DNA from: Chloroflexota bacterium
Lineage (GTDB): Bacteria > Chloroflexota > UBA11872
Reading direction: 5' to 3'
NCBI GenBank assembly: GCA_009839425.1
Contig: VXPS01000262.1
Span: forward strand, 1 to 40,500
DNA length: 40,500 nt
Below, one piece after another: positions 1-29,910 of this stretch. A program made the translations under genes and the position numbers. Each line of letters begins with the position of its first letter. Within the stretch, counting starts at the first letter, position 1. The notes beneath the pieces are model-generated. The model did no database searches, was not told the DNA's origin, and worked only from the letters and a program-made list of their open reading frames with translations.

Positions 1-149
1 AAAGCATGCCTAACTTGTTCCGCAACGCAACCCGAACCCGGAGTGAGATCCATGTTTGCGACATCCCACACCCCATCGCAGTCCGAAGTCGAGCAGGCAG
101 TGGCCCGTGCCCACCACCTGCGGAGCCAGGCATTCGCGGATGCATTTGC

Positions 150-490
150 CTGGCTTGGCAGTTCTGTCACCGCCGCCTTGGCAAAGCTGCGCCCGGCGCC
201 CGCCCGACGGTGCCGGGCAGCCTGAACTGCGGTCGCGCGGCTCTCGTTGTTCCTCGTCGTGCAGGGACGATCCCGGCGGCTTTCCGTACAAACGGGCACG
301 GCAGCTTGAGGGCGCAAACTACGACGATTTATCTGGTGGTTAACACGCGTGTGAAACGTCCGGTAAAGAGTCGTGATGAGCTCAAGATTGATGTCGCATG
401 TTGGGTCGTTACAAGGGGTGCAGGGCTCTTGTTTGTCTCACGTAACGTGTCGGATTTATCGCTACGGAATTGATAAGTTGTCTTGGCGGC
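150..490 (+). repeat. Repeat junction copy 1: beta-type element end (about 150-345, terminal GGTGGTTAACA), short spacer (ACGCG), alpha-type element end (350-490, starts TGTGAAACGTCCGGTAAAGAGTCG)
   Basis: Aligns by eye with copies at 3097-3520, 6301-6565, 5487-5650 (alpha only) and 40220-40448 (beta only). Shared blocks: GCGACAATTTATGTGGTGTTCAACA, ATAAAGAGTCG, GATTGATGTCGCAT, TGTCGGATTT. Confidence 0.7.
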
Positions 491-543
491 ACAGGACGGA
501 GCGTCGAAACAACGGTTAGTCGGCATTGTGCACTTCGCCTAGT

Positions 544-1422
544 CTATGTACTCAAGGACGTGCAGTCCGCCTTAAGGCCGGTGACCAAGCGTTCGACCAG
601 ATCGAGTGTGTCCCGGACCATTGGTGCTCGAACAACGATCCTCTGGCCAAGACGGTAGCGGGTGTCGCCGCTCCGGCTGAGATAGTCCTGGTCAACGATG
701 CCTTGCGTGTGAGCAAGGAGATGGCGTTGCTGGAAGGTTCGGGTCAGTCGGTTCAGCTCGTCTTCCGAGAGATGGTCTCTGTAGCTCTTTCCCGTCGCTG
801 CCCGCCAAAGCTGGTTGCCCTCAGCGAGGTTCTCAAACGCGTTCCGTCTAGCAGTCGGGGCCGAGGGAATGTTGGAGTACATGGCTTCGACGCACCGTTG
901 GAAAGCCGTAACAGCGTTTTTGAGGCCATTCTCGACGATAAAACGGGTCACACTTTCCGCCGTGTCGCGATCTTGAATAGCGGTGCGCACTGAGCCCAAC
1001 GACTCTAGAGACTGCGTGATGCCGGCGACCGTTCGGGCAAAGATCTCTTCAGCCGCGTTGTGACCACAGGAAGGGCAAAAGAAGGCGGGCCCAATAACCG
1101 CATATCGACATTCACAGACAGGACAGACGACCTTTAGTCGCATGGGTTCGGCCACCGCCGGCGGCACGGCGACATGTTGGGGCCGGCTGCCCACTTTCAT
1201 GGTCATGGAAATCAAGCCGCCGCGTGGTTGTCGACGGTTCCAGCGGTCAGCGTCACGCTTGAGAGCGTTGCCCAGGGTCGCCCGCAAATGAGCAACTGCC
1301 GCTTGCGTCAGGTGCTCGATTTGCTCTTCAGTGTGCCATTCAGTGGCAGCCGCCGAATGTCCGCAGAACGGGCAGAACACTTCTTCATCGCGGACCTTGG
1401 CCTTCCAATCCGCCATGAGCAC
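544..1422 (-). CDS. Zinc-ribbon protein with C-terminal HEPN-like (Rx4H) region; 5' end probably frameshifted
   Basis: 292-aa ORF. Cys pairs FCPFCGH and VCPVCEC...FFCPSCGH. C-terminal helical part contains QQRHLLAH (R-x4-H). In-frame sequence upstream of the listed Met reads DRECPSAECQFQFKVL with no start codon, whereas an ATG at 1553 opens another frame. Confidence 0.6.
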   Translation of the reverse strand: MLMADWKAKVRDEEVFCPFCGHSAAATEWHTEEQIEHLTQAAVAHLRATLGNALKRDADRWNRRQPRGGLISMTMKVGSRPQHVAVPPAVAEPMRLKVVCPVCECRYAVIGPAFFCPSCGHNAAEEIFARTVAGITQSLESLGSVRTAIQDRDTAESVTRFIVENGLKNAVTAFQRCVEAMYSNIPSAPTARRNAFENLAEGNQLWRAATGKSYRDHLSEDELNRLTRTFQQRHLLAHTQGIVDQDYLSRSGDTRYRLGQRIVVRAPMVRDTLDLVERLVTGLKADCTSLST

Positions 1423-1661
1423 CTTGAATTGGAATTGGCATTCCGCTGACGGGCACTCGCGATCGAGGTAGCCATCTTCGTCTGAGGAGATGGCCGCCCG
1501 GACGCCGGTAGTTCGCCAAGCTGCTGCATCGCTCGTTTCGTTTCTTCAAACACGGCCTTGCCTCTTCTCCTGAGCGGGAACTGCGTCCAGGTGTATCCCG
1601 GGTCTACCGGTCCGTGCGAACGTGTTCCAGATGGGTGTCAGCAACACTGCCTCAAGCGAGG

Positions 1662-2357
1662 TCAGAACTGGCCTCCTTCGCCGAATTCGCGCTTCTCATA
1701 GACCGTTTCAACCTTTCGTCCGTTCCATACGTAGCAGAGGTGACGCTCCTGGCGGGCATTGGAGAGAAGAGGAGGTCGGAACACCGCAGCACATTCGCCG
1801 TCTGTCTGGCGGACGCTGTCGTAGGCAATCCCGTTTGAGCCGGCCTCACGCAGCGTTCTCGCCAAATGCTGGCCGGCCGCGTAGCTGTCGTTGTGGTAGA
1901 CGAGCGGCTGGGTGACCTGCATGCCGCGCAGGTCATGTAAATCCCCGTCGAGGTCGGCGAGATAAACTCGCATGTCCAGTTCCATACGCCCCTGCGCGGT
2001 GGCGCTCATGAACTGCTCGCGATGGTACTTCGTCTCAGCTATAGCCGTGTCGAGGTCGTTGGCAGCGTAGAACACACCGTAGGTGCCGTCCGAGAACCGG
2101 CTGCCGATCGGGTTCAGATGGGTGAAAGCGGCCATGATGACGGCGGTCCCGGGCCCACTGATGCGATCCTCGGGCGGCACGAGCTTGAGATCACCGACCT
2201 CATCGCGAATCCGGGGGTTGGTGAGGGCATCCAGCTCGAACACCGCTTCAAGGTCGTCCGGTTCAGTCACCCGCTCGAAGAGTTGAATGGGCGGAAACCG
2301 GCTGGGGATGATTCGCCAGCACGGCTTCCATTCGATGCGGGCAACCGGCAACGTCAT
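1662..2357 (-). CDS. RES-domain toxin (RES-Xre type II TA, NAD+-targeting family)
   Basis: 231 aa. Ordered RES signature: GSRFSDG (Arg), AIAETKYH (Glu), YDSVR (Ser). Start overlaps the stop of the upstream antitoxin ORF by 4 nt. Confidence 0.88.
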   Translation of the reverse strand: MTLPVARIEWKPCWRIIPSRFPPIQLFERVTEPDDLEAVFELDALTNPRIRDEVGDLKLVPPEDRISGPGTAVIMAAFTHLNPIGSRFSDGTYGVFYAANDLDTAIAETKYHREQFMSATAQGRMELDMRVYLADLDGDLHDLRGMQVTQPLVYHNDSYAAGQHLARTLREAGSNGIAYDSVRQTDGECAAVFRPPLLSNARQERHLCYVWNGRKVETVYEKREFGEGGQF

Positions 2358-2758
2358 GCCCAGCCGTCCCGCTGCGCATCCAGGTATTGCCGTACGACGA
2401 AGAGGTCCGCCACCTGGCCGGACAACATGCGGTCAAGCGCTGAGCGACCACTGAATAGCGGCGCTGCGTTCGGACGCCTCACCCATTGGTCGGCCGCCTT
2501 CTCGTCGGGGAGCAGGAGCTGGAGCGCCTTGTAGACGCCCAGGACGTAGGAAATGCGCTCCAGCGTGTCCTTTGGCAGAACGGTGTTCGGGTCCTTCTTC
2601 CACTTGAAGAAGGTTGATCGGGCCGTTAGCCCGAGCAGGGTCATCTGTTCTTGAACCGAGAGGTCCCAAAGCGCCGCAATGCGAAAGAACGTGCGTAAAG
2701 CGGGGCCGGAGAGTTCCTTGCGGTCGGTCGCCGTTGCAAGCCGCACCTGAGCAGCCAT
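2354..2758 (-). CDS. Xre/MbcA/ParS-type antitoxin (DUF2384-like) partner of the RES toxin
   Basis: 134 aa. HTH-like LSVQEQMTLLGLTARSTFFKWKK and C-terminal PLFSGRSALDRMLSG pattern typical of RES partners. Operon position immediately 5' of the RES gene. Confidence 0.82.
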   Translation of the reverse strand: MAAQVRLATATDRKELSGPALRTFFRIAALWDLSVQEQMTLLGLTARSTFFKWKKDPNTVLPKDTLERISYVLGVYKALQLLLPDEKAADQWVRRPNAAPLFSGRSALDRMLSGQVADLFVVRQYLDAQRDGWA

Positions 2759-2850
2759 GACAGACTCCAGAAATAATCATATTCGTTATCATAGTCTATA
2801 TATGGATTACATGTAAGATCGAAACTAGCCATCTGACGAGGAGCCCGTGG
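2759..2850 (-). promoter_or_regulatory. AT-rich putative promoter/operator region of the Xre-RES operon
   Basis: Sharp drop in GC (aaataatcatattcgttatcatagtctatatatggattacatgtaagatcg) directly upstream of the antitoxin start. No -35/-10 assignment attempted. Confidence 0.3.
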
Positions 2851-3096
2851 CAGGTCAAAGAGGGACGTTGCTACGCGTCACCGCCTTCTGGAGGGAAGTC
2901 CACCGGATACGGCCTCGCGCAGCCCGGCGGGTTCAGGGGTATGCCGAACTTCGGCTTCGGGCTGTCGGACGCGGCGCGTGTCGGGACCTGCGGGCCCGTC
3001 GATGATGGTGAGTGAGGCACCCGCCGACGAGGCGCGAGGCGTTTTTCTCCTGTGGAAGCAGGGGCCGCGTCTTGCGCGGACACACGTAGCCGCAGG

Positions 3097-3520
3097 GCGC
3101 CTCGCCTGCCCTCTACCCGCCACCGGCCTGTGCATCCCCGGCATGCAAATGCAACGCCGGTTCGTCGCGCGCCTCACTGATCGCACGTTGGCAAGCTGCT
3201 AGCACGATTCCCGGCATCTGGCGGCGCTTATGGCTGAACCTGTCTGTTTGACTTGCGGGCCCTCACCGCCACAAGCGGACAAGGACCCATAAAGCGACAA
3301 ACGGCGACAATTTATGTGGTGTTCAACTTATGTGGTGTTCAACACGTTTGTGAAACATCGGATAAAGAGTCGAGGCACGCTCACGATTGATGTCGCATTT
3401 TGGGTAGTTCCAGCGTGCGTAGGACCAGTCTCGTCTACCGTAATCTGTCGGATTTCTCGCTGTACCACCAATTAGCTGTGACGTTTACGACTGCCTCCTC
3501 TGTCAGCGGGAGGTCAGCAT
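3097..3520 (+). repeat. Repeat junction copy 2: beta end (3097-3344), spacer CGTT, alpha end (3349-3520); carries a 16-bp tandem duplication of the beta terminus
   Basis: TTATGTGGTGTTCAAC occurs twice in tandem (3312-3327, 3328-3343). The beta end has GGACAA/GCGACAA motifs x3. The alpha end starts TGTGAAACATCGGATAAAGAGTCGAGG. Confidence 0.75.
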
Positions 3521-3790
3521 GGCCACCCGAGCCAGGAGGACTCCCCCGGACTCGAACATGGCCGACAGCTGGTTCCGCCTCGACGGCTCGCTGCCGGCGA
3601 TCGACGCCGCCGGGATCCTCGCGCGAGGCAGCCCGATGGCGAAGACCGGTCAGGCGGTAGCCGGCCCGCGGACGGCAGGGGTTTCCACGTTCGGCGCAGG
3701 CGCTGCCGCTCCGGCTCCCGGACACGGAGCCGGCCCAACCGGATCATCCCGAACGCACCTGACCGGTGAGTCCCTGGCGGCCCGCAATTC

Positions 3791-4993
3791 TCACCACTCT
3801 TTGGATTGTTCCGCGTAGACATGGTCGGGCAATCTGTAGCTGATCCCCTCCTTGTCGTACATCGACGCATCAAGGATGGTCATCATGTTGGAGGTAGCGG
3901 CGGCGCGGCTCGGGTTCAACCTGTTCCGAATCGCCTCGATCCGGTTCAGCAGCCGGAACTTCCACAGGATCCCCAGGGTCGGGCTCGCTGGATACATGAG
4001 CTCATCGGCCAACGCATTGCCGATCAGCGCGCGCGAGATCTGCGCGATGTAGCCAGCCAGTTTCTGGCGTGCGTCCCGTTCGGTCAGTCCAGCGAACAGC
4101 GGCGCGGAATTGATAAGGGACAACGCGAGGGCGATCGATTCCATCGAAGGCGAGGGTTCGCAGATGCGGCCGGTGTCGAAGATCCGCAGCGCGTCCGCTT
4201 CGTCCCGGAACAGGATGGTTTCCGGGATGCCCATCAGATAGCCGGAGTACCGCCAGACCGCCATGAAGCTCTTGCGTTCCTCGTCGCTGAAGGATCCGCC
4301 GAGTCTTGTCAGGTGCCTCAACGACCTAGCGGAAAAGGCCGCGATGGCGAAGCCGGTATGCGCCGCGCTGATGGGCGTGCCGAGTTCCCCGATGTCCCAT
4401 TCATCGGACTCGCTCAGAAGGCGCCGGATCTTGGCGTGTACCAGCCGCACCCGCACGGAGTGCGTCCACCCGTCGGCGTGCCTCTCCATGCCGCCAGGCA
4501 TGAAGATCTCCAGCATGTGGCGGTTGTTCTGCTTGAGGCGCCGCGTGCCCTGGTCGCGCAGCCTGCCGGTGATGAAGAACGACTTGGCGATGTTCGTGGA
4601 GAACCCCTCCACGAGCACGCCGCCCACCATGCCCGCGAGGATCAGCCGGGTATTCCGGTGGAACATGCGGCAGCCCGGCTGGAACGATGTCAGGTCAAGC
4701 CATTCCGGTGGCTCGCCACAGTGCTCGAAGAACGCCCTGACGGAGGCCGGTGCGCCGCGAAGCGCGGTGCGGTCCCGATCGTGCATGCCGAGCCTGATCA
4801 GCCTGGCTTGCTCATCCGGCCCGAGGCGGAGGAGATCCGCGATCATCGCGTCAGCCAGGGGGTCCCCGATCGTGGTGTGCGCGACATAGTTGGCGGACCG
4901 CTCGGGGTCCACCGCCCGGCCTCTGGCGTAGCCGTCGATATAGGCGCCCGGAATCTCCGCAGGTCCCGGAGTGAGATGTGTGCCGATGGTCAC
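3791..4993 (-). CDS. MpaB-family oxygenase (DUF2236-like)
   Basis: 400 aa. Central VRVRLVHAKIRRLL block and overall helical composition resemble the DUF2236/MpaB family. The opposite-strand 431-aa ORF looks like a high-GC shadow. Confidence 0.75.
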   Translation of the reverse strand: MTIGTHLTPGPAEIPGAYIDGYARGRAVDPERSANYVAHTTIGDPLADAMIADLLRLGPDEQARLIRLGMHDRDRTALRGAPASVRAFFEHCGEPPEWLDLTSFQPGCRMFHRNTRLILAGMVGGVLVEGFSTNIAKSFFITGRLRDQGTRRLKQNNRHMLEIFMPGGMERHADGWTHSVRVRLVHAKIRRLLSESDEWDIGELGTPISAAHTGFAIAAFSARSLRHLTRLGGSFSDEERKSFMAVWRYSGYLMGIPETILFRDEADALRIFDTGRICEPSPSMESIALALSLINSAPLFAGLTERDARQKLAGYIAQISRALIGNALADELMYPASPTLGILWKFRLLNRIEAIRNRLNPSRAAATSNMMTILDASMYDKEGISYRLPDHVYAEQSKEW

Positions 4994-5149
4994 GGCGTCT
5001 CGTGCTCGGCCTGGATGGGTCCCTCAGCCAGGGAGATGGCAGCCCGCGTGCTGCGCCAGATCGCCAAGCTCCATGACGGCCCCCGTCTACCCAGTGACTA
5101 ACCGACACGCGCCGGTCCGGGCCGACTCCCGGTGCGCTCCGGGCGTCTC

Positions 5150-5265
5150 GCCGACCCGTGCGTGCCCAGCGTGATGTTAACCCGCTTCGCCCGCCAAAGT
5201 CCCGGTTACTGCCGTCAAATGGCGCAACATTTATTATTCGGATATTGTGGGATCGGTGATGAACA
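5150..5265 (+). repeat. Possible degenerate beta-type end (GGCGCAACATTTAT...TGTGGGATCGGTGATGAACA)
   Basis: Weak by-eye similarity to GCGACAATTTATGTGGTGTTCAACA and to the inner beta sequence. Would close the unit that starts at 3349. Confidence 0.3.
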
Positions 5266-5486
5266 CGAAACGGTTACCTCGAGCGGCGTACAAGGGCCGC
5301 GCGGCCGAGCCCGCAGGGTCCGCGGCCATCGGTACCGGCTGGCGGTGCGATGAGGCTTGGCGAGGCCGCGACCGGCCCGTCCGTTGCCCGACGCCTGGTT
5401 CCGGGTGTTCGGCGGGACGGCGTCTGACATAGGACCACCCGGAGGGACGCCGAAGCCTTCCCGGAAGGCGGCGGCAGCGGGCGGTG

Positions 5487-5650
5487 TGTGACATCCGATA
5501 AGAGTCGAGGCACGCTCAAGATTGATGCCGCATCCTGGGTCGCTCCTGCGCGCGCAGGACCAATCTCGTCTACTACAACGTGTCGGATTTCCCACCGTAA
5601 GGCCAATGGGCCGTGACGTTTTCGACTGCCTTCTCTGTCAGGAGGAGGAT
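5487..5650 (+). repeat. Alpha-type element end only (copy 3), starts TGTGACATCCGATAAGAGTCGAGG
   Basis: Homology to copy 2 runs from the TGTG terminus through GATTGATGCCGCAT, TGTCGGATTT and GTGACGTTTTCGACTGCCTTCTCTGTCAGG. Sequence to the left is unrelated to beta ends. Confidence 0.7.
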
Positions 5651-5733
5651 ACTCGGCCACTTCGTTGCTCATGAGCACCGCCCTTCTCGCAAGTTGGTAG
5701 GCCCGACTGTTGCCTAAGGCGGGGTCGTGCAAG

Positions 5734-6300
5734 TTACTGCCTTCTGGCGCCGAAGGCGGCCGTGAGATCGACGCGCTCAACCGATCCGCCCACGCCTTCG
5801 TGGTTCGGGCCGTAGAACTGCCCGTTGACGGTCCCGGTGTCGCCCCCAGTGCTCCGCAGGTAGTTCGTGCCGACGGTGATGGCGTAGCCGAGATCCCTGT
5901 CTCCCCACGTGGAGCCGTCCTCGTTCTCGAGCCCGGTGAAATCGGCCCGCCCGTTCATCGTGCCGAGGTTCACGCTGATCTCCGCATCGCCCTGCACGCC
6001 GTCGAGCGTCGGCGGGAAGCCGATCAGATCCCCGTTCCAAGTCGCGGTTCCCGGCAGTCGTGAGTTGTCGGCAAGGGCTTGGGCGGGTTCCACGCCCGTC
6101 GTCCACGGCATGGTGACCCCGTTGGCGTGCCGCACGCCGAATGAGACCTGCGACAGGCTCCGCGTGAGATCGGTCGTCTCCCCCTCCCACGCGCCGAGGC
6201 TCGTGATGGACAGGCGTTCAGGTTCGGTATCCGTTCCAAGGCGCATGTAGAGCGCGAGGATCCCGGCGGCGTCCGCCGAGTACCTGTCCGGCGGGTTCAC
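5734..6300 (-). CDS. TbpB-like (transferrin-binding-protein-like) beta-barrel domain protein, probably 5'-truncated
   Basis: 188 aa ending GQFYGPNHEGVGGSVERVDLTAAFGARRQ, the typical C-terminal strand pattern of the TbpB_B_D/handle-barrel family. No signal or lipobox sequence. The GTG start abuts the point (6301) where beta-end homology begins. Confidence 0.55.
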   Translation of the reverse strand: MNPPDRYSADAAGILALYMRLGTDTEPERLSITSLGAWEGETTDLTRSLSQVSFGVRHANGVTMPWTTGVEPAQALADNSRLPGTATWNGDLIGFPPTLDGVQGDAEISVNLGTMNGRADFTGLENEDGSTWGDRDLGYAITVGTNYLRSTGGDTGTVNGQFYGPNHEGVGGSVERVDLTAAFGARRQ

Positions 6301-6565
6301 GAGTCCTAATGCCTCGTCGTGCCGGTGACGGAACCCGCCTAGCTAGCTTTCGGAACCTCACCAGGACAATCGGACAAACACCCATAGAGGGACAAACGGC
6401 GACAACTTATGTGGTGTTTGACAACGTTTGTTAAACACCAAATAAAGAGTCGGGGCGCGCTCGCAATTGTTGTCGCATTCGGTCCACTATTGAGGGCATG
6501 AGGCTTTCAATTGGCTCCCGTAACTTGTCGGATTTCTCTCCGGATGGTCGATAAGTTGTCATAGG
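6301..6565 (+). repeat. Repeat junction copy 4: inner-truncated beta end (6301-6423, terminal GGTGTTTGACA), spacer ACGTT (6424-6428), alpha end (6429-6565, starts TGTTAAACACCAAATAAAGAGTCG)
   Basis: The 27-nt imperfect palindrome GGTGTTTGACA-ACGTT-TGTTAAACACC is formed by two facing termini. Flanks align with the other copies. Confidence 0.75.
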
Positions 6566-6652
6566 TTTCGCGGCAATTCACGTCTTGGTGCAAAAAAACG
6601 CCGTGAACAGGTTTTGAGACCATCTAGCAACCCAACATGGGGACATGAGGAC

Positions 6653-8855: not shown

Positions 8856-9090
8856 GAGTGGTGAAGCTCGTCAATCGCCGTAGGAGCGTGACCGCAAAAC
8901 CGATGCTTGACCCTGAACGCGACTTGAAAGGCGCATAGTGGTGCGCTACTAGCCGCCCGGATATCTGGCTTCACGAAGCCTGGGAACTTGACACTTCGGA
9001 TCCCGTACGGGATCCGATCACTGGCGGAGCGGTTAGCGGCGTTGCAGACTGTGGACTTGCCCCGAACGTTGGAGCGAGTCTGGGCGGGGT

Positions 9091-9501
9091 AGATCTGCGT
9101 GCATTGAGGGCGCTGCAGCTCTTCCGCGTCGTGCGGAATCTCAAGTTGGCCCGGTACAGCGAGGCGATGGCCCGATTCGGGAAGGCAGTGGCCCTCGCGA
9201 AGGAAGAGATTGTGCTGTTCGCCGGCGTCGCCTTGCTCTACCTGTCGGCGGCAAGTATCTGGTACTTTGAGCACGAAGCGCAGCGCGAAGCCTTCGCGAG
9301 CATCCCGCACAGCCTCTGGTGGGCAACCGCGACCCTCACGACGGCGGGCTACGGCGATGTCTACCCGGTCACCGCGGCCGGCAAACTTTTCACGTTTGTC
9401 ATCTGATGTGTGGGCTTGGAATCGTCGCGGTGCCCGCTGCGCTGGTCGCTTCAGCGTTGTCGCAAATCCGCCGGGAGAACGCTGGAACGAGGGAGCTATA
9501 G
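9091..9501 (+). pseudogene. Voltage-gated-type K+ channel remnant (S4 to pore to S6), N-terminally truncated and frameshifted
   Basis: S4-like LRALQLFRVVRNLKLARY and selectivity filter TLTTAGYGD. The frame breaks near 9395-9405, and S6-like GLGIVAVPAALVASAL continues in another frame. No S1-S3 upstream (stop at 9088-9090). Confidence 0.75.
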
Positions 9502-11539: not shown

Positions 11540-11614
11540 ATGCAATTGCCTTTGTTGCGGGAACACTGTATAACTATATGATTTTATGTGTATTATATAG
11601 AAGGAAGAGCAAAC
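11540..11614 (+). promoter_or_regulatory. AT-rich putative promoter and RBS region upstream of the ssp-like operon
   Basis: tgtataactatatgattttatgtgtattatatagaaggaagagcaaac precedes a GTG at 11615. aaggaag is a plausible Shine-Dalgarno sequence. Confidence 0.3.
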
Positions 11615-12805
11615 GTGACCCATCCGCGCGATAGGGCTGGAACCTTGGCCAGAAGATCCGGGTCACGCGTTCGTCAAGAACCGATCTTCCTTGATTTTCA
11701 GGCGACCACGCCACTGGATCCGGTTGTGCTCGAGGCGATGCTTCCCTGGATGAGCGGCGCGTGGAACGCCCACGCGATTGAACATGGCATGGGTCGCACA
11801 GCCAGCGCGGCAGTGGAGACGGCCAGGGAACAGGTTGCGGCGCTGCTCGGGTGTCGGTCATCCGAGATCACGTTTACTTCGGGCGCGACCGAGGCCTCGA
11901 ACATCGTCTTGCGTGGCGCCACAAGTGCTGGCGACGCAGTCGTGACGACAGAACTCGAGCACGCAAGCGTCTCGGAAACCGCCGATGACCTGGAGGCCAA
12001 TGGCAGATTCATCCATCGCGTCACGGCCAGCGAAGACGGAATCGTCGACGTCGCTGCACTTGCTGAAGCGTTGGACTCGCAGCCAGCGCTCGCGTCAATC
12101 ACCGCCGTCAACAGCGAAATCGGAACGGTCCAGCCGATCGACGACGTGGCCGCGATGTGCGCGGATCGCGACGTCCCGCTGCACAGCGACCTGACGCAGG
12201 CGGTGGGCAGGATTCCGGTGAAGCTCAGCGACTGGTTCGTGTCGTACGCCTCGATTTCCTCCCACAAGATCTACGGGCCCCAGGGGATCGGCGCACTCTT
12301 CGTTGCGGACGCCGCCGCCGCGCCCAGGCCCCTCGCGACGGGCGGAGGGCAGGAGAACGGGTTGAGACCCGGAACGCTTCCCGTTGCAAGCTGCATCGGC
12401 TTTGGTGCGGCGTGCGACCTGGCTCGGACGCGCCGGGAGCAGGATGATGCGCACGCCCAGACGCTCGCGCGCATGATGCTGAACGGGCTATCCGAACTCG
12501 AAGGATGGCAGTTGAACGGATCGCTGGAGACACGCATCCCGCACAATCTCAGTGTGGCCTTCGAAGGGGTGGATGCCGAGATGCTGCTGGCGTCGCTACC
12601 GGAGCTCGCGCTTGCAACAGGTTCAGCATGCAGCGCCGGATCGCTTCGAGGATCCGCGACGTTGCGCGCCATCAGCGTGCCGGAACCTCTGGCAAACGGC
12701 ACCATTCGGATCGGCTTCGGCCGGACCACTACCCCGGAAGAGGTCCGGACGGCCGCGAGCCTCTTGTGCGATCGTGTGCACTTGCTTCGAGGCGACGCGC
12801 CATGA
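11615..12805 (+). CDS. sspA: Class V aminotransferase-fold cysteine desulfurase (SspA/DndA/IscS-like)
   Basis: The ORF track starts at 11588; a GTG at 11615 has the better RBS. PLP-lysine motif SSHKIYGPQGIGALF, catalytic Cys loop ATGSACSAGS, N-terminal FLDFQATTPLDP. Stop overlaps the next start (ATGA). Confidence 0.82.
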   Translation: MTHPRDRAGTLARRSGSRVRQEPIFLDFQATTPLDPVVLEAMLPWMSGAWNAHAIEHGMGRTASAAVETAREQVAALLGCRSSEITFTSGATEASNIVLRGATSAGDAVVTTELEHASVSETADDLEANGRFIHRVTASEDGIVDVAALAEALDSQPALASITAVNSEIGTVQPIDDVAAMCADRDVPLHSDLTQAVGRIPVKLSDWFVSYASISSHKIYGPQGIGALFVADAAAAPRPLATGGGQENGLRPGTLPVASCIGFGAACDLARTRREQDDAHAQTLARMMLNGLSELEGWQLNGSLETRIPHNLSVAFEGVDAEMLLASLPELALATGSACSAGSLRGSATLRAISVPEPLANGTIRIGFGRTTTPEEVRTAASLLCDRVHLLRGDAP

Positions 12806-13734
12806 CGGCGACGGGTGGCCCTGACGCTCCGGAGGTCGGATGGCCGATTGTGCCCGGTCCGCGTGTCTTCTCCGGGCACGAGTCGTTCGCTTGCCGGTAC
12901 GGCTGGATCCCGAAACTGTACGAAGCTGTGATCGAGGATCCGGACCTGTTTGCGTCGGACGATCACGCGATCCTTCGGCTGGGACTCGGCCGCAACATGG
13001 TCAAGTCGCTCCGTTTCTGGGGAGAGGCGCTCCGGCTCACCCAGCGGAACGGGCGGGAGGTACACGTCACGGAGTTTGCCCGGATGCTGCTGGACCCGCG
13101 GGTCGGCCAGGACCCGTACCTTGAAACTCCGGGTGCGCTCTGGCGCCTCCACTGGACGCTGACCGTGCACGCCGGCCTGGGGGCATGGGCCGTGGTCTTC
13201 TTGGAAATGCAGGACCGTGAGATCACCAGAGAGCGACTGGTGACAGCCGTGCGCGGGTGCGCTGCGCGCGTGCGCGGAACGATTACTTCGGGCACGGCCG
13301 CCAACCATGTCAATGTGTTCCTCCAGACCTACGCGGCAAGCGAGCAGGCGGAAGGACCGCCAGAGGAGACGCTGGGCAGCCCTTTCCAGGAACTGGCGCT
13401 GGTGCGGCTGGCGGCGCCGGGCGGCGTGCCGACAGTGCGGCTCCCACGCGGCCCCAAGCGGTCGCTCGACGCGAGCGCGCTTGCCTTCATCCTGCACGAC
13501 TTCTGGCAGGGCAGCATGCCCGGGAGCGAAACCCTGTCCCTGCGGTCGCTCATGCTCGCGCGCGCTGCCCCCGGTGCAGTCCTGCTGCTGGATGAACCCG
13601 GCCTGCACGAGGCGCTCGATTCCGTCTGCTGCCGGTCGGGTAGGCTTACACTGCGGGGCGACGGAGCCGGCGGTCTGGACCTGACCTGCAAAGGTGAGCC
13701 ATTGCGCGAACTCTGGGAGATAGCTTGGTCATGA
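12802..13734 (+). CDS. sspB: DUF4007-like protein (SspB-like, putative nickase of Ssp phosphorothioation systems)
   Basis: In-frame ATG at 12802 within ORF 12505-13734. N-terminal VFSGHESFACRYGWIPKLYEAV matches the DUF4007 opening pattern as I recall it. ATGA coupling at both ends. Confidence 0.7.
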   Translation: MTATGGPDAPEVGWPIVPGPRVFSGHESFACRYGWIPKLYEAVIEDPDLFASDDHAILRLGLGRNMVKSLRFWGEALRLTQRNGREVHVTEFARMLLDPRVGQDPYLETPGALWRLHWTLTVHAGLGAWAVVFLEMQDREITRERLVTAVRGCAARVRGTITSGTAANHVNVFLQTYAASEQAEGPPEETLGSPFQELALVRLAAPGGVPTVRLPRGPKRSLDASALAFILHDFWQGSMPGSETLSLRSLMLARAAPGAVLLLDEPGLHEALDSVCCRSGRLTLRGDGAGGLDLTCKGEPLRELWEIAWS

Positions 13735-16700
13735 CCGGACCCACAGTCGCTACGCGGGTCACCGTTGGACGCCGCTACGTGCGGGCCGTCGAAATCACGC
13801 GCGACGTCGACGATCCGGATGCCCTCGACGGGTACGTCATCACGCCGTCAGTGCGCGATGCGGCCGTCCGCATTTGCGCTGGGCTGTCCCCCACCTCGAC
13901 ACAGCGTGCGTTCCGCGTTGTCGGCCCGTATGGCGCCGGAAAATCCGCGTTCGCCGTGTTCCTCGCTCAGCTCTGCCGGGAGCACGGAGAAGGACCGGCC
14001 ATGGAGCTTCTCGCGGCAGCGACCGGCGGCTCGGTGGCGATCGCGCCGTGGCGGCCGGCCGTTGTCAGCGGCCGGCGGATCAGCTTTGCACGCGAACTGC
14101 TGAGCGTCGTCGTCCGGGAATGCAGCGCTGGCACGACGGAAGTCGCAGAAGCCGCGGCACAGGCTGCTGCATTGCTGACGCGGGACGATCCACTTGATGT
14201 CCAGGAGGTTGTCGCGCTCCTTGAGTCCGCGGCTGCAGCCGTGCGGCAAACCTCCGGCGAGGGCCTGCTGCTGCTCGTTGACGAGATGGGCAGGTTCCTG
14301 GAGCACGCCGCGCTGGGTAACGAAGATCCGTCCATCTTTCAGGCGCTCGCCGAGCGGGCGGGCGGGCGCCCGGGAGCCGACCTCGCGGTCGTCGGCTTCC
14401 TCCATCACCGTTTTGCCGACTATGTGGCCGGACTGGGCAAGTGGATGGAGGCGGAATGGACACGATCGTCGGAGCGTTACGAGGAAGTGCCATTCAGCAG
14501 CTCTTCCGAACAGTCGCTCTTCATGCTGGCCCGTGCACTGACGCCGGTTCGGCGCCACACGCCTGCGGTGCGGAAACGGGCGGCCGAGCTCTATGGAGAA
14601 GCGGTGGACCGCGGCCTGTTTGCGGTGGCGCGCGAGGATGCCACTGATGTCTCGCAGACGCTGTACCCGCTGCACCCTGTGGCGGTTGCGACCCTCGTTT
14701 GGGCGATGCGGCGGTTCGGCCAGAACGAGCGATCACTGTTCAGCTTCCTGGGGTCCCTTGAACCCTCAGGTTTCCAGCGGTTCGCGCACGCCACCCGGTA
14801 CGACGCGGCGCACTGGTATCGGGCGCCGCACGCGTTCGACTACCTAGCGGCCATGATCAGCGGCTCCCCGGGGAGCGATCGTGGACGGCGATGGTCGCTG
14901 GCGTTTGACGCTGTGGCCCTTGCGGACGGCCTGCCGGGACGGCATCAGGACGTACTGAAGACCGTCGCGCTGGCGGCCGTCCTGGAACCAGTTCCCGGGT
15001 TGGTCGCCGACAACGATACGGTCGCCTGGTCCGTCGGAATGGATCCAGCGGAGACAGACCGGATTCTCGCAGATCTGGCGGAGCGCAAGCTGATCTATCG
15101 CCGATCGCACCGCCAGGACTATGCCCTCTGGTCAAGCTCCAGCGTCGATCTGTCGCAGTGGCTGGAGGATGCAAAGTTGCATGCCCGCATCCCGGAGCGC
15201 CTAGATGACGTCGAGTCCCTGTGGAAGCTCGCTCGGCCGGTGGTCGCCCACCGCCATTACCACGCCACCGGAACGCTCCGGACCTTTGAAGTTCGGCTTT
15301 GGGCAGGCGGGCAAGTCGCTGCACGCGAGGCCGACGGGCTGATCCTGATTGCACCGACCCACCCGGGCGAGGATATGGAGGCGGTGCTGCGCCAAGCGGC
15401 GGCTGCAGTTGCCGACGACCCGCTTGCACTGGTGTGCGCGCGTGCGATTCACCGGGACGACCTGGAATGGGCTCGTGAACTCACGCTGTGGCGCTGGATA
15501 CGCGAAAACTGCGACGAACTCAGGGTGGACGAACTGGCGCGAGCGGAGGTGTACGAACGCATTGCTGCGGCCGAGCGAGCGCTCACGCGGGTTGCCGCGC
15601 TCCTGTCGACGGTGAGCGACGAACGCGCGGAAGCATGGTGGCATGCAGGCAAGCCGGTCACCATGCCCAAGGGACTAAGCGCTTTCCTCAGCGACATCTG
15701 CGATCGCGTGTACGATGAGGCCCCGATCCTGAAGAACGAACTTATCAACCGTAGACGCCTCTCGGCGGCTGGCGCCAGCGCTCGAATGCGCCTGCTGGAC
15801 AGAATGCTCAGCAGTGCCAATCGCGATCAGCTGGGAATGGACAGCGCTCCACCCGAGCGCACGATCTTTCGATCCGTGTTCCTGACGTCCGGCATGCATA
15901 CGCCAACAAGCAATGGCATGTTCGCCTTCGCTCTACCCAGTCTGTCGGACCCGTGCCGCTGGAGACCGGTCTGGCAACGCATTGAGGAGCTGATCCACAC
16001 TGACGAGCCCATTGGTTTCGGCGTCCTCATGGACGAGTTGGGGCGGCCACCGTACGGCTTGCGCGCCGGACCGGCCCTGCTCGTGATCGTGGCAATCATC
16101 CTGGCGTCGAGACTTCATGTTGCGGTCATGGAGCGAAACAGCTTCGTGCCTGAACTGTCGGTGGCGCATCTGATGCGGCTCGCCAAGTCGCCAAACCGTT
16201 TTGCTGTCAAGTCCCTGCACGAGGGTGCCGCACGAAAGGGAGTTGTGCGGGCACTGGCCGCACGGCTGCAGGTTGCGGGAGCGCGTTCTGCAACACTGCA
16301 CGCACTTTCCGAGTGGCTCTTCACCTGGTACAACGCGCTACCCGTTTACGCGTTGCAGACCCGGACGATCTCCCCTGTCGCGCTCGCAGTCCGCACCGCG
16401 CTGCGCAAGGCATCGGAACCCGGACTTTTGTTCTTTCATGAACTGCCGGCAGCGTGCGCTGCACTGCGCGACCGCGGACGGATCGATATCGAACGCTATC
16501 TTGACGTGCTTGACGACGCGTTGCGCGAAATTGGTGACGCTGCGCCCAAGCTACGGATGCGAGCTGCTGCCGCTACCCAGGAAGCATTCGGCGCCGATGA
16601 TATCGCGACGCTCCGTTCCCGGTTCCAGGACGACTACCCACCGCACTGCCTGGAAAGACTGGATGATCGACTGCGGAACTTCGTGGAGCGAGCGATCGAT

Positions 16701-17093
16701 GCGCAAAGGACCGACGATGAATGGCTGGACCGGATCGCAGGCCATGTGTCCGGTCATCGGCCGGAGAGCTGGGACGACGACACGCTCAACCAGTTCGCAG
16801 TGGAAATCCGGGCCATGGCCGGCAATCTGGCGCGCTGGCTCGCCTTGGCCGGAACCCGGCCGGGGTGCGGAACGGATCTGCAAAGCGTCCACGTTGTCGG
16901 GCTCAACGGGCAGGAACGCGTCGTCGTTGTCCGCCGTGACCGGCCGAACCCGCAGCTGCACAGCCGGCTGAACGCGGTGCGGGAGGCTCTCGGTAACGAG
17001 CCCAACGCCGTGGAGGTGCTGGGGCACCTCCTCGCCGAATACACGGAAGGCCATGTCGGTTGGCAGGAGAGAAAAGCGGTCAGTTCGACATGA
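13731..17093 (+). CDS. sspC: Large P-loop ATPase (SspC-like / DUF499-BrxC-like)
   Basis: About 1120 aa. Walker A VVGPYGAGKSAFAV, Walker B-like LLLLVDEMGRF. ATG at 13731 overlaps the upstream TGA. Its own stop overlaps the next ATG. Confidence 0.68.
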   Translation: MTGPTVATRVTVGRRYVRAVEITRDVDDPDALDGYVITPSVRDAAVRICAGLSPTSTQRAFRVVGPYGAGKSAFAVFLAQLCREHGEGPAMELLAAATGGSVAIAPWRPAVVSGRRISFARELLSVVVRECSAGTTEVAEAAAQAAALLTRDDPLDVQEVVALLESAAAAVRQTSGEGLLLLVDEMGRFLEHAALGNEDPSIFQALAERAGGRPGADLAVVGFLHHRFADYVAGLGKWMEAEWTRSSERYEEVPFSSSSEQSLFMLARALTPVRRHTPAVRKRAAELYGEAVDRGLFAVAREDATDVSQTLYPLHPVAVATLVWAMRRFGQNERSLFSFLGSLEPSGFQRFAHATRYDAAHWYRAPHAFDYLAAMISGSPGSDRGRRWSLAFDAVALADGLPGRHQDVLKTVALAAVLEPVPGLVADNDTVAWSVGMDPAETDRILADLAERKLIYRRSHRQDYALWSSSSVDLSQWLEDAKLHARIPERLDDVESLWKLARPVVAHRHYHATGTLRTFEVRLWAGGQVAAREADGLILIAPTHPGEDMEAVLRQAAAAVADDPLALVCARAIHRDDLEWARELTLWRWIRENCDELRVDELARAEVYERIAAAERALTRVAALLSTVSDERAEAWWHAGKPVTMPKGLSAFLSDICDRVYDEAPILKNELINRRRLSAAGASARMRLLDRMLSSANRDQLGMDSAPPERTIFRSVFLTSGMHTPTSNGMFAFALPSLSDPCRWRPVWQRIEELIHTDEPIGFGVLMDELGRPPYGLRAGPALLVIVAIILASRLHVAVMERNSFVPELSVAHLMRLAKSPNRFAVKSLHEGAARKGVVRALAARLQVAGARSATLHALSEWLFTWYNALPVYALQTRTISPVALAVRTALRKASEPGLLFFHELPAACAALRDRGRIDIERYLDVLDDALREIGDAAPKLRMRAAAATQEAFGADDIATLRSRFQDDYPPHCLERLDDRLRNFVERAIDAQRTDDEWLDRIAGHVSGHRPESWDDDTLNQFAVEIRAMAGNLARWLALAGTRPGCGTDLQSVHVVGLNGQERVVVVRRDRPNPQLHSRLNAVREALGNEPNAVEVLGHLLAEYTEGHVGWQERKAVSST

Positions 17094-17890
17094 GGCACAT
17101 TCTCAGCCTCTCCGGCGGCAAGGATTCGGCGGCACTCGCCATCTACATGCGCGATCGCGTGCCCGAGATGGAGTACGTCTTCTCCGATACCCGCAAGGAG
17201 CTCCCGGAAACGTACGCGTACCTGGAGCGGATCGAGGACTATCTGGGAAGGCGGGTAAACCGGCTCAACGCCGAGCTGGGCTTCGACCACTGGTACGAGG
17301 TCTACGGCGGGATGATTCCCTCAAACCACCGCCGATGGTGCACCAAAATGCTCAAGCTCAAGCCGTTCGAGCAATTCGTAGGTGACGATCCCGTACGCAA
17401 CTACGTCGGGTTGCGCGCCGACGAGAACCGTTCTGGCTACATCAGCCACAAGCCAAACATTACGCCGGTCTATCCATTCCAGCAGGACGGGCTGAAGCTC
17501 GAGGACATCGAGGAAATCCTGCAATCTTCGGGAATCGGGATGCCGCCCTACACGGCATGGGGCCGGTCCCGGTCGGGATGCTACTTCTGCTTTTACCAGC
17601 AGAAAATCGAATGGGTTCGCTTGAAGGAGCAGCACCCGGAGCTCTTCGAGGCAGCAAAGGCCTACGAACGGCCGTTTGCGGGCAGCGGCAACACGTTCAC
17701 CTGGAGCCAGCAGGAATCGCTGACGGAGCTGGAACGGCCAGAGCGTGTGCAAGCAATCAAGGACGAGCACACCCGCCGCCAGGCCGCAAGGAAGGCCAGT
17801 GGCGCGGACCTGACGCTCGCCGAGGTCTACCGACGCCGCGCCGCACAGGACGACGCGGATGATGACGCCTGCCTGATCTGTCACCTGTAA
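17090..17890 (+). CDS. sspD: PAPS reductase/ATP pyrophosphatase-fold protein (SspD-like)
   Basis: PP-loop SLSGGKDSAA near the N-terminus. C-terminal CYFCFYQQ and DDACLICHL Cys motifs. ATG at 17090 in ORF 17060-17890. Confidence 0.8.
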   Translation: MRHILSLSGGKDSAALAIYMRDRVPEMEYVFSDTRKELPETYAYLERIEDYLGRRVNRLNAELGFDHWYEVYGGMIPSNHRRWCTKMLKLKPFEQFVGDDPVRNYVGLRADENRSGYISHKPNITPVYPFQQDGLKLEDIEEILQSSGIGMPPYTAWGRSRSGCYFCFYQQKIEWVRLKEQHPELFEAAKAYERPFAGSGNTFTWSQQESLTELERPERVQAIKDEHTRRQAARKASGADLTLAEVYRRRAAQDDADDDACLICHL

Positions 17891-22201: not shown

Positions 22202-22637
22202 CAGCCCGTAAGCCCGGCTACCGGTTCTGCGACCCCGAGATGGCTCGACGCGAGAAGCCCTTCGCATCCAGGTGTTCGCGCTGATCGATCACACCCGGAC
22301 CGCGCCAGGAAACAGCCTTGCCGCTGGCCAGCGGGCCTGCCAGAGGACGCTGTACAGCGCCTCGATCGACGGGGTCGGCCCGCACGCCGCGACCACGTCC
22401 CCACCTGTCCCAGCACGCCTTGAGGGTCGCCGCTTCTTTCGAGACGCGCAGCCAAGGCCCGCAGCCCTGCCCGTCTTGCGGTATCCAACGCTTCCTTCGA
22501 GATCCCGTGTATGTCGGCCGCTTCCGCTGCATGAACCAGCGCGGCCGCCTGCTCCGCATACCAGAGGCGGCGCGCTGCCTCCGAGCTCGGATCGGATCGC
22601 CCGAGCACCAAAGGCGGGCCGGCGAGGTCGCGGCCGC

Positions 22638-23318
22638 GAACGAGCCGTTGAACGACTCGATGAAGGCGTTGTCGGTGGGCTTGCCCGGCCTTGAGAAGTC
22701 GAGTGTCACGCCGTTGAGCCAGGCCCACAGATCAAGCGCCTTGCTGATGAACTCGGGCCCGTTGTCGAGGCGGATCGTCTTCGGTGTGCCGTAGACGCGA
22801 GTGACCCGCTCCAGTGTCTCGACCACGTCCGTGCCGCGGTAGTGCGGCCGCACGTCGATCGCCGGCGAGAGCCGGCTGTAGGCATCGACGATGGTGAGGA
22901 TGCGGATCCTGCGCCCGTTGAACAGCTGGTCCGAGAGGAAGTCCATCGCCCACACCTGGTTCGGCGCTGCGGGCGGAGAGCGGTCCCCGCGAAGCTTCGC
23001 CGCGACCCGGCGCTTGGGCGTCTTATGGCGCAGTTGCAGGCCTTCCTCGGTGTAGAGCCGGTAGATCCGCTTCACGTTCACCTGCCAGCCTTCGCGTCGC
23101 AGGAGCACGTGGATCCGGCGATACCCGTAGCGTACCCGGGTCTCGGCGATCTCGCGGATGCGCTGGCTCAGGACCGCCTGCGATGGCCGGCGGGCGGCGT
23201 AGTGGTAGCTCGACCGGCCGGCTCCCAGCACCGCGCATACGCGCCGGATGCTCACCTGCCAGACCTCCCGAGTCTCGTCGACCAGCTCCCGCCGCCGCGC
23301 CGGCCCTAGAGCTTTTTT
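22638..23318 (-). pseudogene. IS3-family transposase OrfB (rve/DDE), C-terminal part missing or scrambled
   Basis: WAMDF, TIVDAYSR, LDNGPEF and KPTDNAFIESFNG motifs are present. After FNGSF, none of the three frames shows the expected ECLN...WF...RPH tail. Confidence 0.7.
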
Positions 23319-23623
23319 CGCACCACCTCCTGGAGCATCTCCTTGTCGAGACTCAGGTCCGCCACCAGCCGCTTCAGGCGCTGGTTCTCCTCCTCGAGCT
23401 GCTTGAGACGCTTCATCTCGGAGGGCATCAGCCCGCCGTACTTCTTGCGCCATCGGTAATACGTCTGCGCGGAGATCCCCGCCTTCCGGCAGACCTCCTC
23501 GACCCGCGTCCCTTCCTCCGCCTGGCGCAGGATGAACGCAATCTGCTGCTCGCTGAACTTCGACCGTTTCATGGCCTCTTCCCCACTGGGTCCATGAAAA
23601 CCTATCCGAGAATTCTCTCGCAA
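23306..23623 (-). CDS. IS3-family transposase OrfA (HTH + leucine zipper)
   Basis: MKRSKFSEQQIAFILRQAEEGTRVEEVCRKAGISAQTYYRWRKKYGGLMPSEMKRLKQLEEENQRLKRLVADLSLDKEMLQ is a textbook IS3/IS407 OrfA. Confidence 0.88.
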   Translation of the reverse strand: MRENSRIGFHGPSGEEAMKRSKFSEQQIAFILRQAEEGTRVEEVCRKAGISAQTYYRWRKKYGGLMPSEMKRLKQLEEENQRLKRLVADLSLDKEMLQEVVRKKL

Positions 23624-23653
23624 TCAGTGGTCCAACTTCCGGGGAGCAGGTCA

Positions 23654-24290
23654 GCGCGGGCGCGAGCCTACGCGCACTCGACTTGTTCTCGGGCTGCGGC
23701 GGATTGTCGCTCGGGTTTCATGCCGCCGGCTTTGACATCGCGGCCGCGATGGACGTCGACCCGGTGGCAGCGGCATCCCACGGCACCAACTTTCATCCCG
23801 GCTTCCCGAAGCATGCTCAGGGCCGGGACTTGACCGTGATCACGCCCTGTCGCCTTGCGCGCGAATTGGATGTGGGTGACGTCGCGGGGGCTTTCGAAGT
23901 GGTCGTTGGGGACCCGCCTTGCCAGGCGTTCGCACGTGTCGGCAGATCGAAGCTGCGGGCGGTCGATGCCGATCCGGACGCGTTCCGGGCCGACCCGCGG
24001 GCCAGACTGAACGCCCCCTACCTGAGGTACGTGGAGTCGTGTCTTCCTCTGACCGTTCTGATAGAAAACGTACCGGACGTCATGAATTTCAGGGGACGAA
24101 ACGTTGCGGAGCAGATCTGCGCCGCATTGGAGAGCCTCGGCTATGTCTGCGCCTATACGCTGCTCAATGCGGCGTTCTAGGGTGGCTGCCCGCAGCGACC
24201 ATGTCCGGCTGTCCGGGCATTCGAAGCGCACCGTACAAGAATAGAACACCGGGCGCGCCGCGCGCATGCCCGGGCTGACCAATTTGCAAC
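23654..24290 (+). pseudogene. DNA (cytosine-5) methyltransferase remnant, 5' end cut by the IS and interrupted by an in-frame stop
   Basis: Motif I LDLFSGCGGLSLGF begins 10 codons after the IS terminus with no start codon. Motif IV GDPPCQAF and ENV motif LIENVPD are present. TAG at 24178 sits where LNAA(D/F)YGVPQ is expected (reads LNAAF*GGCPQR), and the frame then degrades. Confidence 0.78.
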
Positions 24291-24296
24291 CTGATT

Positions 24297-24410
24297 CCGG
24301 CTTCACGCCTCTCGAGTACTTGATACGTGATGTCTCAAGTCGAACAATACCGTTGGACCCGTTCTGTTCTGACCGGGTCTGACGCCACCGTAAGGGAGGC
24401 GTGAAGCCGG
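24297..24410. repeat. Perfect 15-bp inverted repeat (CCGGCTTCACGCCTC / GAGGCGTGAAGCCGG) enclosing 84 nt
   Basis: Arms at 24297-24311 and 24396-24410. The loop contains a nested ACTTGA/TCAAGT pair. Lies between the dcm remnant and tniA. Confidence 0.6.
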
Positions 24411-24519
24411 GGTTGAGTTCGTAGCACCGAACCCGACCAGCACACCGGACCCACCTTTAACCGACGATCCGGCATGACAACTCTACCCGCAGTGGCATGC
24501 CGTTTCAACGAGGAAACGA

Positions 24520-29347: not shown

Positions 29348-29376
29348 GGGCGCGCAGGCGGAGGAATCCCGACGAC

Positions 29377-29712: not shown

Positions 29713-29910
29713 TGACGTCGGGTCGTGTCCGCAGGCGAACTCGACACGCAGGTTTAGCCGGCAACGGTGAACTTCCCATTCCAGTGGCAAGGAGATGCGA
29801 CCGTGACGGGAGGCTGGACGATCTTGCGGCATTCTCGCCGGCGGGAGTGTGTTGGGGCTTTCTGGCGTGGCGCAAGGTCGTTCCGCCGGAATTTGTGAAG
29901 GGACGGGACC

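Follow-up and report, generated by a model that had tools for sequence, protein, structure and literature searches.

The window analysed here is the whole 40,500-nt stretch at positions 1 to 40,500 of contig VXPS01000262.1 (NCBI GenBank assembly GCA_009839425.1), and its subject is a dispersed repeat that an earlier note, made from the letters alone, had described as a two-part structure with mobile-element termini. Self-BLAST, repeat finding, multiple alignments, and nhmmer end profiles bear out this description and resolve the repeat into two parts, alpha and beta, which are very probably the two ends of a family of Tn7-like cut-and-paste transposons stacked at a tRNA-Glu(CTC) gene. The array is composed of units that run head to tail, all in one orientation, from U0 (distal) through U4 (next to tRNA-Glu); alpha1, alpha2, alpha4, and alpha5 terminate at 345, 3344, 6423, and 40448, and beta1 to beta4 begin at 350, 3349, 5485, and 6429, respectively. 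The units, ends, and junctions are the following (related contigs are denoted by L numbers):

247-345, plus strand: alpha end of U0 (alpha1; nhmmer E=9e-21), the body of U0 lying to the left of the window
346-349: spacer between U0 and U1, CGCG, 4 nt, with the ACA tips kept aligned
350-3344, plus strand: U1, 2,995 bp, with beta at 350-487 and alpha at 3090-3344, without transposition genes
544-1422, 1662-2357, and 2354-2758, minus strand: cargo of U1, namely a zinc-ribbon protein, a RES toxin, and an Xre antitoxin, respectively
3345-3348: spacer between U1 and U2, CGTT, 4 nt, with the ACA tips kept aligned
3349-5484, plus strand: U2, with beta at 3349-3513 and an MpaB/Lcp-like oxygenase gene at 3791-4993 (minus strand)
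5485-6423, plus strand: U3, 939 bp, with beta at 5485-5648, alpha at 6325-6423, and the gene of a protein of 188 amino acids (aa) at 5734-6300 (minus strand)
6424-6428: left target duplication of U4, ACGTT, 5 nt
6429-40448, plus strand: U4, 34,020 bp, from beta4 to alpha5, absent from L006 and L007
6429-6566, plus strand: beta end of U4, whose tip is TGTTAAACACC; TGTCGC and TGTCGG lie at positions 43 and 98, respectively, and TTGTCA lies near 127
40210-40448, plus strand: alpha end of U4, tRNA-proximal, with packed sites at 20, 30, and 48 from the tip
40449-40453: right target duplication of U4, ACGTT, directly after alpha5
40454-40475: 22-nt spacer GCCCGGCGGGCTCGAGATGGCC from the insertion point to the tRNA gene, identical in L006, L008, and L011
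40476-40500, minus strand: 3' end of tRNA-Glu(CTC), cut by the window end, recognised by identity with the genes of L006, L008, and L011

Both parts of the repeat occur exactly four times in the window, alpha at 247-345, 3230-3344, 6325-6423, and 40350-40448 (nhmmer, E from 1e-20 to 4e-28) and beta at 350-487, 3349-3487, 5485-5622, and 6429-6566 (nhmmer, E from 1e-34 to 4e-38); self-BLAST, repeat finding, and nhmmer detected no further end copies in the window. Alpha tips read ...GGTGTTYRACA, in a longer form ...GCGACAAYTTATGYGGTGTTYRACA, at 345, 3344, 6423, and 40448, and the beta consensus from the tip is TGTKAAACAYC...AAGAGTCG...ATTGWTGTCGCAT...TGTCGGATTT. The terminal pattern TGTNAAACANC has 11 matches against 3.6 expected, a number reached by none of 100 shuffles. 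The breakpoints of partial and full copies coincide with the TGT and ACA tips, as had been proposed, and they do so also in the relative L002. Read inward, alpha and beta tips are inverted repeats of each other, with 12-21 ungapped matches over 30 positions within units (about 16 of 24 had been estimated), the best pair being beta4/alpha5 (21/30), i.e., the ends of U4 itself.

Sub-terminal TGTC[GC] sites lie at fixed positions and in a single orientation in both ends, in beta at 43 and ~98 inward from the tip, in alpha at 20, 30, and 48 and in some copies also at 56, against a background density of 0.4 per 140 nt per strand over the whole window. The ends are asymmetric, with packed sites in alpha and spaced sites in beta, and it is alpha that faces the tRNA gene. 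The multi-site character ascribed to the ends is, thus, recovered, though alpha1, the most decayed copy (58-63% identity to the other alphas), has lost all its TGTC[GC] sites in the motif scan; alpha4 retains all of them. Identity to alpha5 is 84% for alpha2 and 81% for alpha4, and a strict age gradient along the array was rejected, since the only clearly most decayed copy is the most distal one, alpha1. Alpha conservation extends over ~240 nt (76-88%; window 3090-3344 and 40210-40448, L008 7217-7459), far exceeding the ~60 nt that contain the TGTC[GC] sites, and alpha2 bears a 16-nt tandem duplication of its terminal transposase site/tip (3312-3327 = 3328-3343, TTATGTGGTGTTCAAC twice). In addition, beta2 and beta3 have 165 nt in common at ~80%.

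Exact-sequence look-up of the U1 RES toxin recovered two sibling contigs, L006 and L007. L006, a 72-kb metagenome contig of which 19.4 kb were examined, shows 98.7% identity over window positions 50-6428, and L007 shows 99.86% identity and ends exactly at window position 6428, without U4. L006 reads alpha4-ACGTT-GCCCGG...tRNA-Glu and the window reads alpha4-ACGTT-[34,020 bp]-ACGTT-GCCCGG...; since L006 runs straight from ACGTT to the tRNA-Glu(CTC) flank, 6429-40448 stands out as a separate insertion that duplicated 5 bp, ACGTT. U4 landed 22 nt from the 3' end of tRNA-Glu, at a site with at least four older ends, and the arrays with different unit numbers that the note had proposed to look for in relatives are represented by L006 and L007, which lack this unit. 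Beyond tRNA-Glu, L006 continues into the chromosomal genes Lnt and FAA hydrolase. On the distal side, L006 10861-19445 corresponds to the body of U0, of at least 8.6 kb, with genes for a zeta-toxin, YaaC, and a KAP NTPase; in the part of U0 visible in L006, transposition genes and further ends were not seen, and the far boundary of the array lies beyond the visible stretch.

The succession of alpha end, ACGTT, identical 22-nt spacer, and tRNA-Glu(CTC) is found in the window, L006, L008, and L011. In L008, which comes from the same sample as L006, tnsAB-tnsC-tniQ-orfX are 93.5% identical to window 24795-29780 and are followed by a different 2.2-kb cargo, beyond which lie an alpha end at 88% identity and then ACGTT, the identical 22-nt spacer, and tRNA-Glu. 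This contig is decisive, as it holds an independent element in which the tns genes, an alpha end, and the attachment site are linked. L011, a GTDB representative contig from a Rhodospirillales metagenome-assembled genome (MAG), begins ACA-ACGTT-GCCCGG...tRNA-Glu, broken at the transposon tip, and it indicates that the host lineage is likely a Rhodospirillales-type alphaproteobacterium. Full tRNA-Glu CTC genes were found by ARAGORN at L006 4581-4656, L008 7487-7562, and L011 1031-1106; ARAGORN found no tRNA gene in the window because that gene is cut by the window end. Contig breaks fall at tips or at the alpha repeat in L007 (position 1), L011 (position 1136), and L005 (its end), all short-read, so assemblies tend to fragment at the array.

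The insertion site is, hence, fixed: three haplotypes have it 22 nt downstream of tRNA-Glu(CTC). Of the idea of a constant pentamer left at one attachment site, the site holds and the pentamer does not, as it varies across junctions. Likewise, the separation of abutting tips by 4-5 nt is confirmed as a range, but the sequences read CGCG and CGTT, both of 4 nt, and ACGTT, of 5 nt, where ACGCG, ACGTT, and ACGTT had been given.

A second, independent insertion event is recorded in L002 (OZ244069.1, an alphaproteobacterial MAG chromosome), the one true match of a GTDB search with the alpha pattern. Alpha similarity stops there exactly at ...TTTAACA, and a diverged beta end, 1.2 kb from alpha, carries TGTCGC and TGTCGG at the same tip distances, so that the sites keep their positions though the intervening sequence has diverged. 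The unit of 1,206 bp (L002 5063-6268) contains two small open reading frames (ORFs) and no transposition genes, with ACAAC on both flanks, and removal of the unit together with one ACAAC restores a continuous ankyrin-repeat ORF, ...PLHWAASYDN/VGMVRALLAGGADPS... The footprint is that of a textbook transposition event, 5-bp duplication included, and small units of the family transpose as such. The expected 5-bp target duplication is, thus, observed in two independent events, as ACGTT for U4 compared with L006 and as ACAAC for the L002 unit. Another GTDB match of the alpha pattern, L001, was rejected as a chance match inside a transketolase-like gene, and the pattern had no match in JGI metagenomes.

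Gene annotation of the small units U1-U3 found cargo genes only, one to three per unit, and no transposition genes, in line with the earlier reading; U1 and U3 have complete ends on both sides. The boundaries assigned to these units were right for 350-3344 and for the start at 3349, but the third unit begins at 5485 and not at 5487, and an end of the second at about 5265 is unsupported. A decayed alpha near 5222-5265 was rejected, given a local alignment score of 18 against 18.5 +/- 3.4 for shuffles and no nhmmer match. The 219 nt at 5266-5484, between the MpaB gene region and beta3, bear no resemblance to the rest of the window, and beta3 is without an abutting alpha end. Exact-sequence look-ups of the cargo proteins of U2 and U3 returned the same array only.

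Among the array units, transposition genes are present only in U4, where tnsAB, tnsC, and tniQ make up the cognate gene set, bounded by the same ends, whose existence had been suggested and which L008 independently links to an alpha end. The features of this conserved block, which extends from 24178 to ~29740-29780, are the following:

24290-24415, plus strand: structured element of ~130 nt in the tnsAB leader (minimum free energy -66.5 kcal/mol, z=-6.7)
24526-27288, plus strand: tnsAB, 920 aa, a fused TnsA-like nuclease domain and TnsB DDE transposase (HTH_28, rve)
27285-28454, plus strand: tnsC, AAA+ regulator of 388-389 aa, overlapping the tnsAB stop codon
28451-29347, plus strand: tniQ, target selector of 298 aa
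29377-29712, plus strand: 111-aa ORF (orfX), conserved, with weak helix-turn-helix matches, the last gene of the block

TnsAB matches PmcCAST TnsAB (PDB 9bw1) over residues 69-879 versus 29-848, the TnsA-like N-terminus included (phmmer E=1e-61). Its TnsB part contains the DDE motifs VDAT (D545), MDNG (D618), and CERLF (E655), invariant in three homologues, with the Pfam rve match at 22.4 bits, under the cut-off; in the TnsA-like motif, E97 and D144 align with the PmcCAST residues. TnsC matches AAA_22 at E=5.6e-5, under the gathering score, and the best PDB match of its profile is PmcCAST TnsC (E=7e-9); its Walker B region reads LVLD(D/Q)AD. TniQ scores 56.4 bits for PF06527 against a cut-off of 27 and matches PmcCAST TnsD at E=7.6e-33, the match to PmcCAST TnsD and TniQ covering the first 183 residues. 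The 298-aa TniQ is the single one encoded here, the sole extra candidate being the 111-aa ORF; that this ORF is the split C-terminus of a longer TniQ was rejected, as it does not resemble the TniQ of L012, which has 355 aa.

The transposon family is rare. Close homologues number three among 5.8 billion proteins, and protein, profile, and peptide-seeded searches found no TnsAB relatives in GTDB genomes or JGI metagenomes; the wider fused-TnsAB family comprises 507 full-length cluster representatives at E<=1e-30. The metagenome contigs L003 and L004 conserve the block from 24178 to ~29740 at ~80%, and neither L009 nor L012, which carry the two nearest TnsAB relatives, has recognisable ends or a tRNA gene. 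The block common to L003 starts at 24178, at a truncated C5-methylase ORF and without end-like sequence, and no beta-type end was found just upstream of tnsAB, at ~24.2 kb. The structured element in the tnsAB leader has a counterpart at L003 9759-9895, with invariant stems and variable loops; it has no Rfam match and might act as a regulatory RNA or, as a palindrome, bind a protein.

Taken together, the directly observed ends, their single orientation and fixed distance to the tRNA gene, the target duplications, the presence/absence polymorphism, and the gene set make a stacked family of Tn7-like transposons the reading held with high confidence. In Tn7-like systems, a TniQ-family selector binds a conserved gene and TnsC relays this to TnsA plus TnsB, with insertion at a fixed offset (PMC11014353, PMC11406308, PMC9881144, PMC10293859); the fused-TnsAB branch has been described as tRNA-targeting (PMC9881144), and its homing distance as 30-33 nt beyond the end of the tRNA (PMC10293859). 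Here, TniQ, perhaps aided by the 111-aa ORF, would read tRNA-Glu(CTC) and direct insertion in one orientation ~22-27 bp downstream of it. The recognised sequence would be offset from the insertion point and would, therefore, survive every insertion, so that each newcomer would land between the tRNA gene and the prior occupant, re-creating the 5-bp ACGTT. The units would then form a head-to-tail series in order of arrival, the oldest lying furthest from the tRNA gene; the decay of alpha1 and the CGCG spacer are in keeping with this. U4 would, judging from its sequence, be the autonomous and newest unit, and U1, U2, and U3 may have been mobilised in trans or have shrunk in place.

Several observations weigh against this reading. 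Two junctions are irregular in having 4-nt spacers, GGCGG and not ACGTT precedes beta3, and neither nhmmer nor local alignment recognised an alpha end for U2. The tns genes lie mid-element, at distances of 18 kb (beta) and 10.7 kb (alpha) from the two ends, and the role of the TGTC[GC] motifs as TnsAB-binding sites is putative. In the TnsA-like motif, the Lys position is occupied by R160 (EFR versus ECK, residues 158-160), which is invariant in the three homologues. The TnsC Walker A (residues ~54-62) reads GP(K/H)DAGRST in the window and L008 and GPNGAGTST in L003 and L004, so the canonical GxxxxGK[ST] is absent from all four TnsC proteins of the sub-family, which have Arg or Thr for Lys; the Lys is retained in L009 (GPPFVGKTT), L012 (GPPLVGKS), and PmcCAST (GASGVGKTT). 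Because of these two changes, the activity of the U4 copy is putative. Finally, Tn7-like elements normally display strong target immunity against a second insertion by resident ends (PMC11014353, PMC11406308), and yet U4 sits 5 bp from alpha4, a site-intact end.

With at least five ends stacked at this site, immunity may be weak or bypassed here, and the unusual TnsC is a plausible cause of the stacking. A broader version of this idea, rather speculative and on balance doubtful, is that the sub-family has relaxed immunity through loss of the TnsC Walker A Lys, and that the tRNA-Glu site would act as an open accretion platform for single-module (defence or toxin-antitoxin) mini-transposons, which could be re-mobilised singly or en bloc, using a distal beta and a proximal alpha. 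If true, this would amount to an integron-like cassette system built from Tn7 ends.

The alternative that survives best, unlikely as it is, concerns the origin of the small units, which might never have been mobile as such but have arrived full-size and lost their transposition genes (and, in U2, an end) by deletion in place. The missing alpha end of U2 and the orphan stretch at 5266-5484 fit this scenario, as do the ~240-nt homology of alpha2 with alpha5 and L008 and the 165 nt shared by beta2 and beta3 at ~80%, as for deletion derivatives. However, the 1,206-bp unit of L002, with intact ends and a 5-bp duplication, shows that small units do transpose, and the ends of U1 and U3 are complete at both sides.

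Much less probable is that a tyrosine recombinase built the array, for example the integrase encoded at 32069-33055, with alpha-ACGTT-beta junctions representing hybrid att sites of serial islands or integron-like cassettes. A Phage_integrase-family gene does lie inside U4, the junction has the form of an imperfect palindrome with a short spacer at its centre, and tRNA genes are classic island integration sites. However, the 5-mers at the flanks are not the same in the two events (ACGTT, ACAAC) and derive from the target, and removal of the L002 unit restores an ORF; the tRNA flank has no resemblance to the element tips, nor is the tRNA gene duplicated in any part; the junction spacer measures 4-5 nt, not 6-8; and the integrase is absent from the L008 version, with none in the ~15 kb of U0-U3 visible in L006.

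Equally improbable is membership of the Tn5053/Tn402 family, i.e., of replicative, res-hunting elements without TnsA, which would account for the gene order of DDE transposase, AAA+ protein, and TniQ, the 5-bp target duplication, and the multi-repeat ends, and for which the Arg at the TnsA-like Lys position leaves room for replicative transposition. Defective derivatives of Tn5053/Tn402 elements are also mobilised in trans. Those elements, however, have no TnsA domain, carry a resolvase and a res site, and target res sites, whereas the N-terminal domain here is homologous to the TnsA part of PmcCAST TnsAB in a full-length match, the target is a fixed tRNA-adjacent site, and no resolvase family or res site was found among the scanned ORFs, the sole recombinase being the tyrosine integrase at 32069-33055. 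Of the joint label "Tn7/Tn5053-like" used previously, the first half is retained and the second is not. Lastly, a structured RNA gene or REP/RIME-like regulatory repeat associated with cargo by coincidence, for which it may be said that the inverted tips let the junction form a hairpin and which had been named beforehand as the refuting case, is itself refuted, since the two parts are also found separately (alpha5 next to the tRNA flank, beta3 alone, the L002 ends 1.2 kb apart around genes), Rfam at gathering and permissive thresholds returned nothing relevant for the repeats, and the boundaries coincide with a 34-kb presence/absence polymorphism.

The stacked Tn7-like transposons of this locus most resemble the fused-TnsAB branch (PmcCAST type I-B2, McCAST/CyCAST type I-D, and Tn5469; PMC9881144, PMC10293859), with which they share the single TnsA-TnsB polypeptide, homologous over its full length, a TnsC of the same size whose best structural relative is PmcCAST TnsC, a TniQ core homologous to PmcCAST TnsD and TniQ, and insertion in one orientation a few tens of nucleotides past a tRNA gene. 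They differ in having no CRISPR-Cas genes, one 298-aa TniQ plus a 111-aa ORF instead of a TnsD of ~460 aa and a second TniQ, a Rhodospirillales-like and not a cyanobacterial host, a replaced TnsC Walker A Lys, and tns genes away from the ends; moreover, the tips are TGT/ACA versus TAC/GTA in McCAST, and all sites point one way, whereas left-end sites in that branch are reported in both orientations.

Prototypic Tn7, which inserts at attTn7 downstream of glmS, has in common with the present elements the TGT/ACA tips, the asymmetric ends with packed and spaced multiple sites, the packed-site end facing the recognised gene, the 5-bp duplication, and insertion ~23-25 bp from a recognised gene that is left intact. 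However, TnsA and TnsB are separate proteins in Tn7, which also has a TnsD of 508 aa and a TnsE pathway; it inserts at glmS and not at a tRNA gene, and its strong target immunity normally prevents stacking. Accumulation of related elements at one site despite immunity, with diversification of cargo, is known from Tn7-like islands, such as Tn6022/AbaR in comM (PMC11014353) and tandem telomeric insertions (bioRxiv 10.1101/2024.11.13.623437). These involve other sites and selectors (TnsF for comM), whereas the stack described here is strictly head to tail, with canonical 4-5-nt junctions, and most of its units are very small (one to three genes).

The cargo is typical of such elements, with defence and secretion functions in U4 and the RES/Xre toxin-antitoxin pair in a mini-element. 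U4 holds a complete SspABCD phosphorothioation module at 11588-17890 (PADLOC, E between 1e-70 and 5e-238). Next come a HATPase protein of 783 aa and a protein of 648 aa and unassigned function, which may be the restriction partners of SspABCD; U4 also contains a PDC-S31 candidate defence gene. An ion-channel gene fragment at 9080-9482 has an 89% identical counterpart at L003 2335-2744, which lies 7 kb upstream of the L003 tns genes, and the fragment appears to be a shared remnant of the variable left arm of the element. The region 22218-24180 contains an IS3-family element (transposase 22218-23453, orfA 23306-23623) and, adjoining it, an ORF for a C5 cytosine methylase, whose truncation at 24180 falls exactly at the start of the conserved tns block. 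On the other side of this block, a LysR-type regulator (30630-31526) neighbours the Phage_integrase-family tyrosine recombinase gene (32069-33055, minus strand), which is probably cargo because it is absent from the L008 variant. The tRNA-proximal cargo (33225-40131) includes two RTX repeat proteins with a 27-nt periodicity and a type I secretion ABC transporter with its HlyD partner.

The locus is, thus, a CRISPR-free alphaproteobacterial lineage of fused-TnsAB Tn7-like transposons, stacked with non-autonomous cargo mini-elements. Island building by Tn7-like elements is known in kind, and what is offered here is an unusually well resolved case, in which near-identical haplotypes with and without a 34-kb insertion form a natural before/after pair at single-base resolution. 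The fused-TnsAB, tRNA-targeting branch, best known from cyanobacterial CRISPR-associated transposons, gains a CRISPR-free alphaproteobacterial range and a very compact selector, consisting of a 298-aa TniQ and a 111-aa ORF. Moreover, U4 inserted into an already occupied attachment site, which is what target immunity should prevent. Should TnsC not be the cause of this stacking, the array would be an ordinary, if well-resolved, case of island building. If, instead, the unusual TnsC explains the stacking, the family would provide a direct handle on how immunity is encoded, and such a link between TnsC and immunity would bear on multi-copy or repeated insertion with transposon-based genome-editing tools.

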